In this document: positions 1,341-41,459 of the stretch, piece by piece
Layout: every line of letters starts with the position of its first letter
Position numbering within the stretch: position 1 is the stretch's first letter
DNA from: Promethearchaeota archaeon
GTDB taxonomy: Archaea > Asgardarchaeota > Lokiarchaeia > Sigyniarchaeales > SOKP01
Assembly: GCA_048938895.1 (NCBI GenBank)
Contig: JBHLLU010000027.1
Coordinates: 1-54,550 of the forward strand
Direction of reading: 5' to 3'
Length of the DNA: 54,550 nt
Notes under the pieces: model-generated
The model's input: only the letters and a program-made list of their open reading frames with translations
What the model was told of the DNA's origin: nothing
The model's database searches: none
Position numbers and translations under genes: made by a program

Positions 1341-1502
1341 TTATTTAGTAAGTTCCCTTTTCTTAGGTCTTAAATCCTTGCTATGACATCTTCTACATTT
1401 CTTTGCTCTAACTGGATTTAAAGCACCACATTTTCGGCAGACACTTTTTTCTAGTAGGTGATATCGTGCAATTCTTCGTTTCGCAGGATCATCAATCGGC
1501 AT
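1341..1502 (-). CDS. rpl40e: 50S ribosomal protein eL40 (missing from ORF track)
   Basis: Manual translation [53 protein letters not shown] (53 aa); CRKCxAxNPxRAxKCRRC..LRPKK signature; no ubiquitin fusion. Confidence 0.95.
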
Positions 1503-1693: not shown

Positions 1694-1888
1694 ATGCCTA
1701 GAGAAATTTTTGATGAAGAAAAGTTTATTGAATTAGCTGAGTTTGCTGTTCATTGTCGAGTGAAGCGTTTAAAGGAGGTAGTTAAATTGAAACTTAGAAC
1801 TAGAAAAATTCTTTATACTTTCAAAACAGATCCAACGACGGCAGAAAGACTCCTAAGAAATATACCTTGTGACGTAATAGAAATATGA
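1694..1888 (+). CDS. rpl38e: 50S ribosomal protein eL38
   Basis: MPREI...KLKLRTRKILYT motif of L38e; 64 aa, basic. Confidence 0.9.
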   Translation: MPREIFDEEKFIELAEFAVHCRVKRLKEVVKLKLRTRKILYTFKTDPTTAERLLRNIPCDVIEI

Positions 1889-8382: not shown

Positions 8383-9309
8383 ATGGGTATCATGAATGAA
8401 AAATATATTCAAGATTATATAAAGGCAGGAAAAGCTGTAATTGCTGCTAAAAAATTAGCAAGTCAAATAATCAAACCCGGAGTTTTATTATTAGATATTG
8501 CTAATCAATGTGAAGCCGAATTAATAAAAAATGGATGTGAGTTATCTTTTCCAATCAATTTATCTTTAAATGAAATTGCTGCACATTATAGTCCCCCTAT
8601 TGATGATGATATGGTAGTTCCTGAAAATGGTTTATTAAAAATTGATATTGGTGCCCATTTTAATGGATATATAGCAGATTCCGCTTTTACAATTAATATT
8701 GATGGAGATCCAAAATTACAAAATTATGTTGACGCTGCCAAAGAAGCATTAGATGCAGCAATTGAGCTATTTAAACCTGGAGTCAAATTATATGAATTAG
8801 GTGAAGCAATTGCTCAAAAAATCTTGAATAGAGGGTTAAGACCAATTACAAATCTTGGTGGGCATGAGTTAAAGCAATATAATTTGCATGCCGGACCATT
8901 TATTCCTAATTATAAAGAAAAATTACATGATCAAATATTGAAACCAGGAGATGCTTATGCTTGTGAACCCTTTGCAACTTCAGGAGTAGGAAAAGTTGAA
9001 AATGGAAATAGTTCTTATATATATCGATTCGCTAGGAAAGTAAAAAAAAATGTACCATATACAGAACAAGTTTATATGAATAAAATAGAAACTAATTTCA
9101 AACAGCTTCCTTTTTCACCTCGATGGATAGATAATAATAATCTTTTTCCTAATCAAAATATCCAGACAATAATTGATTCGCTTTTGAGAAGAAAAATTTT
9201 GGATAAATATCCCATTTTAATTGAAAAAAGCAAAGAACCTGTGGCTCAAGAAGAACATACTATTATATTGGATATGGATGGAAAGAAAATTGTCACTACC
9301 AAAGAATAA
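8383..9309 (+). CDS. map: Methionine aminopeptidase type II
   Basis: FPINLSLNEIAAHY, DIGAHxxGYIADSA, NLGGH, ACEP, QEEHT motifs. Confidence 0.95.
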   Translation: MGIMNEKYIQDYIKAGKAVIAAKKLASQIIKPGVLLLDIANQCEAELIKNGCELSFPINLSLNEIAAHYSPPIDDDMVVPENGLLKIDIGAHFNGYIADSAFTINIDGDPKLQNYVDAAKEALDAAIELFKPGVKLYELGEAIAQKILNRGLRPITNLGGHELKQYNLHAGPFIPNYKEKLHDQILKPGDAYACEPFATSGVGKVENGNSSYIYRFARKVKKNVPYTEQVYMNKIETNFKQLPFSPRWIDNNNLFPNQNIQTIIDSLLRRKILDKYPILIEKSKEPVAQEEHTIILDMDGKKIVTTKE

Positions 9310-10141
9310 ACTTAAGGCAAAAATATCTGTAATAATATTAGCTGCTGGGGAAGGAACACGGATAAGTGACTTTATACAAAATATACCAAAGCCAATGATT
9401 AAAGTAAATAATAAACCACTTCTGATGCATATCATATCTAATCTAACTTCACCAGAAATTAGTTCTATTAATATTATAACTGGACATCTGGGAAATGAGA
9501 TAAAGAAGTTTATTTTATCTCTTAAAAAAATTAATACTACTCTTTATGAAAAAATTGCAATTATTGATTCTGGAGAAGATTATAAGAAAGGCTCGTTATA
9601 TTCCTTTCTTTCAATAGCGAATAAGCCTATCCTCGAAAAAGACAAATTCTTTTTGGTTATTCCAGGTGATACGTACTTTGAACCAGATTTATTCACAGAG
9701 ATTTTTAGTAAAATCCAAAAAGATTTCAATATTATTGAAAAGTATTCAATTATCTTTTATCAAAATATACAGGGTATTGAATTAAAATCAAATTTAAACT
9801 CAAAACGAAGAATATCAATTGTAACAATTGAAAGATTTAAATCGAAAGAAATTCTTAAAGAAATTACACAAAAGACCATCAACGGTATAAGGAATAATGA
9901 AGAGGTTAACCAAATTTTACCAGTATTTATATTCAATTATGAACTTATGAAAAGAATAATTGAGGTTGAAAAAGATGTTTCCGCAACAACAATTAGAGAA
10001 ATAATTAATCATTTTATTCAAAAAGAGAATTATACTATTTTTGCATATCCAATTAGTTCTGGTTATACCTTTATTGATGTTGATACAAAATCAGAATTAA
10101 AAACACTACAAAAAAAAAAGGACAATAGAGGCTCCGATTAA
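9221..10141 (+). CDS. NTP-transferase family protein (start probably downstream of 9221)
   Basis: ILAAGEGTR..IPKPM, PGD, C-terminal DVDT. Confidence 0.8.
   Translation: MKKAKNLWLKKNILLYWIWMERKLSLPKNKLKAKISVIILAAGEGTRISDFIQNIPKPMIKVNNKPLLMHIISNLTSPEISSINIITGHLGNEIKKFILSLKKINTTLYEKIAIIDSGEDYKKGSLYSFLSIANKPILEKDKFFLVIPGDTYFEPDLFTEIFSKIQKDFNIIEKYSIIFYQNIQGIELKSNLNSKRRISIVTIERFKSKEILKEITQKTINGIRNNEEVNQILPVFIFNYELMKRIIEVEKDVSATTIREIINHFIQKENYTIFAYPISSGYTFIDVDTKSELKTLQKKKDNRGSD
10110..10119 (-). terminator. Oligo-T terminator of candidate RNA A
   Basis: T10 on minus strand directly after ...CTATTGTCC. Confidence 0.45.
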
Positions 10142-10216
10142 TCAGAGGGTAATTGATCCAAAGGAATCTCTTGATTAAAAAGCCATTGAAACAACTAGGC
10201 AATCAAAGCGTCTATT
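10120..10216 (-). ncRNA. Candidate structured small RNA A (three-way junction)
   Basis: 16-position terminal helix AAUAGACGCUUUGAUU/AAUCGGAGCCUCUAUU (one C-C mismatch; two G-U pairs only on minus strand) enclosing two hairpins; TATA-like at about -30..-22; U10 tract follows. Confidence 0.55.
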
Positions 10217-10382
10217 ATTAAAAATCTTTTATTTAAGCTATATATTATAGTTTCTCAGTCTCGTGTATCTCTTAAAAATGACATCTCACACAACAAAATT
10301 TTTCAAAGTTTTATAGATTCAAAGGAAAGACTTTATTACTATAACATTCAAGTGCGAAACTTATTATTTTTCCCCAAAGTGC

Positions 10383-10474
10383 TAAACTAATTCATGTTAT
10401 CACAGAAACTCCAAAAAGATTTAATCTTCTGTACGATGGTATCAAGCACTACAGGAACATTAACGATTAGTTCA
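10383..10474 (-). ncRNA. Candidate structured small RNA C
   Basis: Nested helices UGAACUAAU/AUUAGUUUA, AUGUU/AACAU, AUC/GAU, ACAGAAG/UUUCUGU; G-U pairs on minus strand. Confidence 0.35.
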
Positions 10475-10543
10475 AACCAATTACTAAGATATATTGTAGC
10501 TTTCTAAATTATCTACATCAAAAAAAAAATTATCGATAAAAAA

Positions 10544-10631
10544 GGAATCAGCATAAATAGAGTAAACAACTAAGCTGCTGTTTGAGCCGTATTAATGTAT
10601 CTAATTCCAATGCAAAATTGACCTATTGTCC
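10544..10631 (-). ncRNA. Candidate structured small RNA B
   Basis: Long hairpin GGAAUUAG/CUGAUUCC ... AAACAGC/GUUGUUU with G-U pairs on minus strand; U6 then U9 tracts follow; TTTAAATA at -31..-24. Confidence 0.5.
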
Positions 10632-10654
10632 AACTAAATATATGACATTAAGCA

Positions 10655-10662
10655 TATTTAAA
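10655..10662 (-). promoter_or_regulatory. Archaeal TATA box upstream of candidate RNA B
   Basis: TTTAAATA at canonical distance from G10631; AT-rich context weakens this. Confidence 0.35.
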
Positions 10663-10759
10663 TCTTGTTATTAAGCCATATAAAAATTTCCAGAAATAAT
10701 TTATGAATTGTAGAATTAGGTAATTAAAACAATATAAATATCGGTAGTTATATTATTTA

Positions 10760-11158
10760 TTGAATATGAATAGTGATTCAGGTATAGTATCGGTAAAACT
10801 TGAATTATTCGGAATTGGCACATTAGAAGGAGAAATTATCAGACATATTGCGCCATTATCCGCAGATGCTATAATTGAGAAATTTCCACTCAATAGAAGG
10901 GGAAGATTCAGTTTTGGCTCAAAGAGTTATTGGACTCTTCCAGGTTTAGGTATTTTTAAAGGTCTAAATCCAAAATCTCTAAAAGACGTTGAAAAGGGAG
11001 ATATTATATATAATCCTAAGACTGATGAATTGGTTATAGTTTTAGAGAACATTCAAATGCCAAACAGAGTTAATAAGGTGGGAAAGGTACTTTCAAACTT
11101 AGATTTATTGTTAAAAGCAAGAAATGGTTTAAATATGAAAATATCTAAGAAATCATAA
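10760..11158 (+). CDS. Cyclophilin-like fold protein
   Basis: APxSAxAI..xP, VEKGDIxY.P..LVI, VNKVGKV pattern of the TM1367/DUF3830-like family. Confidence 0.65.
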   Translation: MNMNSDSGIVSVKLELFGIGTLEGEIIRHIAPLSADAIIEKFPLNRRGRFSFGSKSYWTLPGLGIFKGLNPKSLKDVEKGDIIYNPKTDELVIVLENIQMPNRVNKVGKVLSNLDLLLKARNGLNMKISKKS

Positions 11159-41220: not shown

Positions 41221-41459
41221 TTTTCACTTAGATTCACAATTTTGTTTGAAAATATTTTATTTATTATTTTGCTATTGGTATTAATAAAATATTCTTTTTG
41301 TCAAACTTGTGAAAAATATGAAAATTTGCATATATCAAAAGACCCTATCCTTAAGGTGTAAATTTGTCGAATTGCCACTAAACTACACGGGGCTTTCATT
41401 TTAAATATGTAATTGCTGCAATATATATCAAAGTGTAATTTTCTCCGAGATGAAGTAAT

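Follow-up and report, generated by a model that had tools for sequence, protein, structure and literature searches.

What does a gap without a convincing reading frame encode in the genome of an Asgard archaeon, and is its product one RNA or several? The question is raised by a 54,550-nt stretch of Promethearchaeota archaeon (contig JBHLLU010000027.1, hereafter the window), in which the interval 10142-10765 between two coding sequences (CDSs) harbours a minus-strand RNA locus. A first-pass annotation had proposed that this gap holds three independently transcribed minus-strand small RNAs, modules B (10631-10544), C (10474-10383) and A (10216-10120), or else one RNA of ~510 nt. Our comparative analysis indicates that the locus is very probably a real RNA gene. 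On balance, the gap appears to encode one non-coding RNA of ~520 nt, running on the minus strand from ~10631 to ~10112, with paired ends and conserved in the family. The product is probably one long functional transcript, and the option of a single RNA fits the results better than that of three small RNAs.

Analysis of reading frames found no open reading frame (ORF) of at least 80 amino acids (aa) within 10142-10759, where no stop-to-stop frame exceeds 63 aa. In the homologues, the longest ORF of each (median 41.5 aa) lies at inconsistent places and on inconsistent strands. A coding gene in the gap was rejected on the basis of these short frames and inconsistent ORFs. A structured non-coding RNA on the minus strand, as first proposed, is supported by conservation, wobble pairs and the lack of coding frames.

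Conservation and distribution of the RNA locus

The gap is present as a single copy in its own genome (G000). A BLAST search against 40 relatives gave matches in 22 of the 24 same-genus genomes, and the matches formed two blocks, namely module A and the 5' half of B together with its upstream region. Alignment of the full syntenic gaps added further conserved blocks: two rod arms in the C region, a U-run, an element before B that resembles a promoter and a box round GUCUCRUGUAU (plus-strand reading). A miniature inverted-repeat transposable element or other mobile element, suggested by a 9-nt inverted repeat at the ends, was rejected because the locus is single copy and syntenic in other genera.

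A covariance model of module A (R1) matched 91 of 135 family genomes, among them G000, each with a single copy in sense orientation; any additional, weaker match was the antisense of that same place. Matches were distributed over the genera g1 (48/53), g22 (36/42), g21 (5/10) and g19 (1/1), with none in the other nine genera of the family and none in three other families of the order (0/19). R1 misses g12, g16, g23 and g14, whose 3' domain differs; these were recovered through synteny and a sequence model of the promoter and 5' domain (R2). Their syntenic gaps showed the same promoter, 5' strand, GCAUUGG-type box and 3' strand, combined with a different 3' domain. Using R2, the locus was found in 111 of 126 genomes of the family (f1), representing 12 of its 13 genera, and in the thirteenth genus by hand. 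In six other families of the class R2 matched 1 of 24 genomes, weakly (E 3e-4). The length of the RNA ranges from 362 to 642 nt across 58 genomes.

A pattern scan of genome contigs with 14 specified bases returned at least 120 stretches, mostly chance matches, and 6 of the 80 loci examined were true by R1. Six model-confirmed matches among the named records listed carry the labels Promethearchaeota, Promethearchaeia or Hermodarchaeota, in agreement with the Asgard lineage suggested at first pass. The NCBI taxonomy treats Promethearchaeia as a class within the phylum Promethearchaeota, and a 2025 preprint equates this phylum with the former "Asgard" archaea.

The two ends of the RNA

The features of the predicted RNA are given below from 5' to 3'; all lie on the minus strand. 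MFE denotes minimum free energy and BRE the B recognition element.

10655..10675, minus strand: promoter, with TATA box TTTAAATA (10662-10655) and upstream BRE-like element TTAATAACAAGA; identified by conservation and constant spacing
10622..10631, minus strand: predicted transcription start (~10631), placed by the TATA spacing, and 5' strand of the terminal helix, GGACAAUAGG
10597..10617, minus strand: box UUUUGCAUUGGAAUUAGAUAC with core GCAUUGG; CATTGG is invariant or nearly so in same-genus and cross-genus alignments
10544..10608, minus strand: domain B, with closing helix GGAAUUAG (10608-10601) / CUGAUUCC (10551-10544) in the MFE fold of G000
10505..10543, minus strand: first U-rich element, with U6 (10543-10538) and U10 (10529-10520) in a local hairpin; identified by conservation of the U-run
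10370..10460, minus strand: domain C rod, with 5' arm AUGUUCCUGUAGUGCUU (10460-10444), 3' arm (10383-10370) and a variable insert; arms conserved across genera
10258..10296, minus strand: second U-loop hairpin, with U5 (10278-10274), ending in conserved GAUACACGAGAC (10269-10258); from the alignment and local folds
10120..10216, minus strand: domain A, a rod of ~97 nt; from its z-score of -3.15, RNAalifold and R1
10120..10129, minus strand: 3' strand of the terminal helix, UCUAUUGUCC, overlapping the 3' strand of helix P1 of domain A, so that the two pairings compete
10110..10119, minus strand: U10 run, predicted terminator and 3' tail; in 58/58 genomes UCC is followed by a U/C-rich run

The central observation on the two ends is their complementarity. 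Module B opens with GGACAAUAG (10631-10623), which is the reverse complement of CUAUUGUCC (10128-10120) at the close of module A, and the whole 5' strand (10622-10631) is complementary to 10129-10120. Among 31 loci, a segment 255-416 nt upstream of A ranked first or second in length among the complements of the 3' end of A in every case, and first in 28. In all of 58 genomes from six genera, the 3' motif with its pyrimidine run was accompanied by an upstream complement of 9-17 bp and by a TATA-like box 10-45 nt before that complement; the helix was also found by hand in g16 and g14. Seven core pairs hold in 56-58 of the 58 genomes. Covariation was observed at one position (CG 47, UG 8, UA 3), at a flanking position (GC 31, UA 16, AU 6, GU 2, UG 2, AC 1) and at a third (AU 21, UA 16, UU 19). 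The helix is lengthened on different sides according to lineage (GAAAAGGACAAU/AUUGUCCUUUUC, GGAGGAUAAUAGG/CCUAUUGUCCUCU and UGGACAAUAGUA/UACUAUUGUCCA), and g12 carries a double change (GGAUAAUAG/CUAUUAUCC). RNAalifold applied to full-length alignments picks this long-range helix over the local P1 of domain A.

The sequence TTAATAA.AAGATTTAAATA, which precedes the 5' strand, shows little or no variation among 20 same-genus genomes and is conserved in 41 sequences from 8 genera. The distance between the TATA box and the 5' helix strand is a constant 22-24 nt in every lineage, including those with a shifted helix. Since 22-24 nt is the usual distance from the TATA box to the transcription start in archaea, the helix would begin at or beside position +1. 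At the opposite end the locus closes with CUAUUGUCC and the U-run (10128-10110), and the U/C-rich run after UCC is also present in the module A alignment of same-genus genomes. Oligo-U tracts terminate archaeal transcription.

These results bear on two earlier observations. Modules A and B had been described as ending in UCC plus oligo-U, and this is correct, as A ends in UCC and U10 and the closing helix of B ends in UUCC followed by U6 and U10. Both had also been assigned a TATA-like box upstream: the box of B stands, being conserved and placed 23 nt before 10631, and that of A does not, since it lacks both conservation and the right spacing. Only 5 of 45 homologues showed a TATA-like octamer whose start falls 27-35 nt before A. 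A 23-nt direct repeat (10222-10244 / 10660-10682, 83% identity) was observed in G000, in which the stretch upstream of A resembles part of the promoter region of the RNA; a matching, correctly spaced TATA box at that place is not conserved in the relatives (5/45).

Strand and covariation

Analysis of wobble pairs revealed the orientation of the RNA. Two U.G pairs in module A read UG in 23/23 and 20/23 same-genus genomes; on the plus strand they would be A-C mismatches, and the RNA is therefore placed on the minus strand, as the wobble-pair argument of the first-pass annotation had it. One-sided changes in module A are nearly all to G.U. Module A on the minus strand folds with an MFE of -25.2 kcal/mol (z -3.15), a stability reached by none of 200 shuffled sequences, compared with z -1.77 and 10 of 200 shuffles for the plus strand. 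Module A (10216-10120), with a mean column identity of 80% over 23 same-genus genomes, is thus a real element. Module B on the minus strand gave z -1.54 (14/200 shuffles as stable) and module C, as first delimited, z +0.06 (99/200).

A composite structure of 48 pairs in seven helices was evaluated on 22 full-length sequences from four genera. In total 84.3% of its cells are paired, against 40-50% when the partners are slid, and its covariation score of 0.158 exceeds the 0.117 of shuffled alignments (reached by 0/500) and the 0.055-0.078 of slid partners. G.U cells outnumber A.C cells (132 vs 41), and 84.3% of cells pair on the minus strand as against 75.6% on the plus strand. Covariation in the syntenic gaps was thus found both in the terminal helix and in the composite structure.

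Domains between the ends

The GCAUUGG box near the 5' end is kept even in genera with a different 3' domain, with CCAUUGG in g14. The closing helix of domain B encloses a small hairpin, CGGU/ACCG in most relatives. Composite helices 2 and 3, which belong to this domain, are 71% and 67% paired, and two and three of their pairs, respectively, are changed on both sides. The helix GGAAUUAG/CUGAUUCC noted in module B is accordingly real and conserved, though B alone is only weakly stable. In three genomes (G019, G022 and G073; loci L020, L023 and L053) the body of domain B is deleted; these variants of 362-396 nt lack domain B and the first U-run and keep the promoter, terminal helix, rod C and rod A.

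A run of at least six U starting 70-125 nt from the 5' end was found in 52 of 58 homologues. It is enclosed by at least four pairs in 41 of the 52, through four different closing stems according to lineage (CUGG/CCAG, GUGAC/GUUCAC, CCGA/UCGG and GAUCCUUA/UAAGGAUUC). The mean number of enclosing pairs is 9.8, against 6.6 in flank-shuffled controls.

In rod C, RNAalifold run separately on g1 and g22 found UGUUCC/GGAGCA and AGUGC/GCACU, and G000 has GGGGAA in place of GGAGCA in the 3' arm. Composite helices 4 and 5 of this rod are 77% and 76% paired, with 3/6 and 5/5 pairs changed on both sides. Module C as originally delimited was no better than its shuffles, and its outer stem is not the conserved part. 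The second U-loop hairpin contains GAGAC, invariant in 22 sequences. Its local folds include CUC/GAG and UGU/ACA, with U-runs in GGUAU/AUACC loops, and its outer pairs vary by lineage (UUGA/UCAA, CUGU/ACAG, GAU/AUC).

Domain A is composed of P1 (AAUAG/CUAUU), P2 (GCUUUGAU/AUCGGAGC, with tandem U.G), P3, P4 (UUCA/UGAA), a UU/UU loop and P5 (GGA/UCC), and RNAalifold folded it into a 23-pair rod. In 31 homologues drawn from four genera, pairing covers 91.2% of its cells, against 34-53% with partners slid, and the same rod is closed in 29 of 31 single-sequence MFE folds. Single-sequence folds were used here, as RNAalifold on the cross-genus covariance-model alignment of A lost the inner helices through register shifts. 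The sequence of P3 changes between genera and stays paired (CAUAAUUG/CAAUUAU, CAGGAUU/AAUUCUG and CCAGGAGAGA/UUUCUUCGG). B and C are conserved domains of the predicted RNA.

Comparison with known RNAs

The whole window was free of matches to Rfam 15 (4227 models) at gathering thresholds. Searched permissively, 9900-10900 gave only matches with an E-value of 2.3 or worse, far below threshold, and 11 homologous loci gave two noise matches, both outside the RNA. ARAGORN found no tRNA or tmRNA genes in the window. Consistent with the earlier statement that the RNA cannot be assigned to tRNA, 5S, signal recognition particle (SRP), RNase P, C/D or H/ACA RNAs, the Rfam, ARAGORN and consensus checks were all negative. 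The predicted RNA is unlike any catalogued RNA and would constitute a new RNA family. In the literature searched, mainly abstracts, there was no description of such an RNA, nor of structured RNAs in Asgard archaea beyond the universal ones.

RNase P RNA was rejected as an identity, since model RF00373 matches contig C88 of G000 at 123.2 bits and not the RNA locus. SRP RNA was considered because G000 holds just a 16.8-bit fragment, and it was rejected because SRP RNA lies at another locus in 5/5 relatives; the SRP model RF01857 gave no match at the locus even at E up to 10. The fragment found with the Archaea_SRP model is located on contig C18:3865-3943. The same model scores the full-length SRP RNAs of the five relatives at 57.6-75.6 bits, against a cut-off of 96.5 bits, so that SRP RNA in this lineage would escape annotation pipelines. 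SRP (7S) and RNase P RNAs resemble the present RNA in being archaeal, several hundred nt long, paired at their ends, single copy and conserved; they differ in that both are encoded elsewhere and neither model scores here.

C/D-box small RNAs (sRNAs) carry C (RUGAUGA) and D (CUGA) boxes near both ends, and H/ACA sRNAs a hairpin followed by ACA 3 nt from the 3' end. A conserved UGAUGA is absent from the three alignment consensus sequences, and the CUGA in module A of G000 is not conserved. No ACA follows module A; an invariant UUGUCC and the U-run are found instead. Matches to small nucleolar RNAs were at chance level only (E 6.5). Guide sRNAs are, like the present RNA, small structured intergenic RNAs of archaea, and module A alone is about the size of an H/ACA sRNA; the present RNA differs by its UUGUCC and U-run at the 3' end and by the lack of conserved C/D boxes or ACA.

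Y RNAs of eukaryotes and the bacterial Y-like RNAs (e.g. YrlA) have paired ends, a 3' oligo-U and a single-copy gene with its own strong promoter. The present RNA likewise shows a terminal stem of its 5' and 3' ends with an oligo-U tail and is non-coding and single copy, but it is ~520 nt long (362-642) as against ~100 nt and has no Rfam match. No TROVE/Ro60 gene was found in G000 by a search that was positive in two control genomes. The search for the La protein gave no match in G000, and the same search matched 0 of 14 control genomes.

Sm-class small nuclear RNAs (snRNAs) and other RNAs bound by Sm/Lsm proteins have U-rich tracts flanked by stems and a 3' U-tail, features that the present RNA may share, and G000 has four LSM-domain genes. 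Such genes are expected in archaea generally and indicate nothing specific. The general Sm-site consensus served for this comparison. The U-runs of the present RNA are conserved (52/58); unlike in snRNAs, they lie in hairpin loops, and conserved snRNA boxes or an Rfam snRNA match are lacking. The same U-run could be a terminator. The large RNAs OLE, ROOL and GOLLD, a group with newly found or unknown functions, are comparable in size (0.4-0.6 kb), in having several conserved domains, in their restriction to one lineage and in having been found by comparative genomics alone. Those RNAs are bacterial, whereas the present one is archaeal, A+U-rich, of modest stability and without an Rfam match.

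Neighbouring genes and the rest of the window

The RNA gene is flanked by the following genes.

9278..10141, plus strand: NTP_transferase CDS, convergent with the RNA; Pfam PF00483, E 2.1e-11; stop codon at 10139-10141
10732..11158, plus strand: cyclophilin-like ORF of 130 aa, divergent neighbour, ATG at 10766; PF04126, E 0.002, below cut-off

The gene order is M24, NTP_transferase, RNA, ORF132 and VTT. The two left-hand genes, NTP_transferase among them, are retained in all 20 loci from three other genera. The final 22 nt of the NTP_transferase CDS (32 nt including the A-run) are antisense to the 3' end of the RNA gene. Its last seven codons (10120-10141; DNRGSD, then stop) lie opposite the most invariant segment of the RNA. 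The C-terminus of NTP_transferase is probably fixed by the RNA, not the reverse.

The cyclophilin-like ORF has its own conserved TATA box (10732-10741), 24 nt 5' of the ATG, and the sequence suggests that its mRNA is leaderless. The TTG at 10760, listed as its start, is probably unused. This ORF was detected in 136 of 151 genomes, spread over all seven families of the class, and is therefore not co-distributed with the RNA; in the five loci examined in f2 and f3 it has other neighbours and only a short gap upstream. Given this distribution and these neighbours, it was rejected as a specific partner of the RNA.

The gap 10142-10759 is the second largest in the window without an ORF of at least 80 aa, after 1261-2063. 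Its earlier description as the largest non-coding gap is reasonable, because two small ORFs in conserved DNA fill most of 1261-2063. One (1341-1502, minus strand) encodes 53 aa with two CxxC pairs and many basic residues, the other (1694-1888, plus strand) 64 aa; the stretch carrying both matches 22 of 25 same-genus genomes. By appearance the two products may be small ribosomal proteins. A short island richer in G+C (41336-41393, minus strand) was observed within a 428-nt gap, and on visual inspection the minus strand begins as a tRNA 5' half would; neither ARAGORN nor a permissive-mode Rfam search made a call on it.

One transcript or several, and other explanations

The most serious alternative is that the locus encodes two or three separate small RNAs: B (~105 nt) ending at the first U-run, A (~100 nt) with its own start, C perhaps as a third, and the 5' end of B pairing in trans with the 3' end of A. 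The U-run lies ~100 nt from the promoter in 52/58 genomes and oligo-U is an archaeal terminator; A is an autonomous stable rod (z -3.15) and the most conserved block by BLAST; the stretch 10222-10244 upstream of A resembles part of the promoter region of B in G000 (83% over 23 nt); and the complementarity of B and A would work equally well between two molecules. Against it stands the pairing round the first U-run. As the excess of enclosing pairs is modest, the argument rests on the differing stems: these pair both flanks of the U-run in lineage-specific ways, which requires the two sides to be on one molecule. Furthermore, only one promoter, that before B, is conserved and well spaced; no conserved, correctly spaced TATA box precedes C, or A, where the 5/45 homologues with a usable TATA-like box again favour one transcript. 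The three genomes that lost the B body kept the promoter and the first 10-16 nt, which would be odd for a free-standing B gene and favours one transcript. Together with the covarying terminal helix that joins B to A, these observations, the stems across the U-runs and the B-body deletions included, speak against three independently transcribed RNAs, and we regard separate small RNAs as rather unlikely. An intermediate case may also apply, in which the first U-run is a leaky terminator giving a short form of ~105 nt beside the long one.

A transcript that acts in cis, and not in trans, as an antisense or regulatory RNA is very unlikely; its targets would be NTP_transferase, via the 22-32 nt of 3' overlap, or the cyclophilin-like gene, via the promoter region that the two share. 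It would agree with the overlap of the opposite-strand CDS end (22 nt; 32 nt with the A-run), with the retention of M24 and NTP_transferase beside the RNA in 20/20 loci of three other genera and with the lack of a convincing trans target, a blastn-short search of the RNA against the whole of G000 having given chance-level matches only, in non-conserved A+U-rich parts. Against this, ~490 nt of conserved structured RNA lie outside the overlap, the whole gene block is syntenic so that linkage is not informative, the cyclophilin-like gene is spread over all seven families and has other neighbours and a short gap in the five f2 and f3 loci, and the covarying terminal helix would be left unexplained. 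Still less probable, to the point of being hardly credible, is a very divergent member of a known RNA family, or a set of DNA-level elements (promoters, protein-binding sites) without an RNA product. Rfam models can underperform in this lineage, as the SRP scores of 57.6-75.6 against 96.5 bits illustrate, and no transcript was seen. However, RNase P RNA (123.2 bits) lies elsewhere in G000 and SRP RNA elsewhere in 5/5 relatives, permissive searches of 12 loci gave not even weak Rfam matches on the RNA, and the 132 G.U against 41 A.C cells and the compensatory changes are hard to explain at the level of DNA.

Several points weigh against one long closed RNA, the reading preferred here. Its start, its end and its transcription as a single unit are predictions from sequence. 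The 6-12 U conserved ~100 nt after a strong promoter resemble a terminator, and much transcription may stop there. The full-length RNA (516 nt, minus strand) gave z -0.59, with 30 of 100 shuffles folding as well, and only module A is thermodynamically unusual. Compared with shuffled controls, folding is thus favourable for A, weak for B and no better than chance for C and the full length, and thermodynamics alone therefore supports only module A. The G+C content of the gap (0.23-0.30) is not above that of the flanking coding DNA, although structured RNAs in A+T-rich archaea often show such a rise. A large share of the conservation in the helices consists of invariant positions, which are silent on pairing, and several helices are mostly invariant; related genomes are not independent, and shuffle-based counts therefore overstate the support. 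The terminal helix competes with the conserved P1 of A (AAUAG/CUAUU), and both cannot fully form together; this overlap makes two alternative folds possible. A run labelled metatranscriptomic and flagged 'probably DNA' contained a single 154-nt contig from the locus (10447-10600), which shows neither strand, ends nor expression and was left unused.

Proposed organization and function

For the single RNA, the following organization is proposed. Transcription would proceed from the strong conserved TATA/BRE promoter (10655-10675) and end at the U-run 10119-10110. The first 10 nt would pair with the last 10 nt before the U-tail and close the molecule, with domain B, a U-rich-loop hairpin, rod C, the second U-loop hairpin and rod A following one another between the ends. 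Such a molecule might serve as a stable, protein-bound scaffold RNA of a ribonucleoprotein, protected by its closed ends and U-tail. Candidate protein sites would be the invariant internal loops (UU/UU and tandem U.G) as well as CAUUGGA and GGAGC, two motifs that recur in the RNA. The two U-rich loops are candidate sites for Sm-like proteins of the host, the leading candidates for partners; loading of such proteins on the RNA is possible, if doubtful. The overlap of the terminal helix with P1 of A could act as a switch between two folds. By analogy, the RNA might even form the core of a new ribonucleoprotein particle built like eukaryotic Pol III or Sm-class RNAs, with paired ends, a 3' oligo-U tail, Sm-like rings on the U-rich loops and the helix/P1 pair as a conformational switch, in a lineage of those archaea that stand nearest to eukaryotes, but this we consider a long shot.

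Significance

The single copy, the strong promoter, the presence in 111 of 126 genomes and the covarying closing helix suggest an RNA needed by the cell. Even with a mundane function it would represent a new, clearly delimited RNA family for which two search models (R1 and R2) are available. The RNA offers a marker for family f1 of these archaea, and it would explain the frozen C-terminal codons of the neighbouring NTP_transferase gene. Its paired ends, U-tail and U-rich loops invite the question of whether Sm-like proteins were assembling on dedicated scaffold RNAs before there were eukaryotes.

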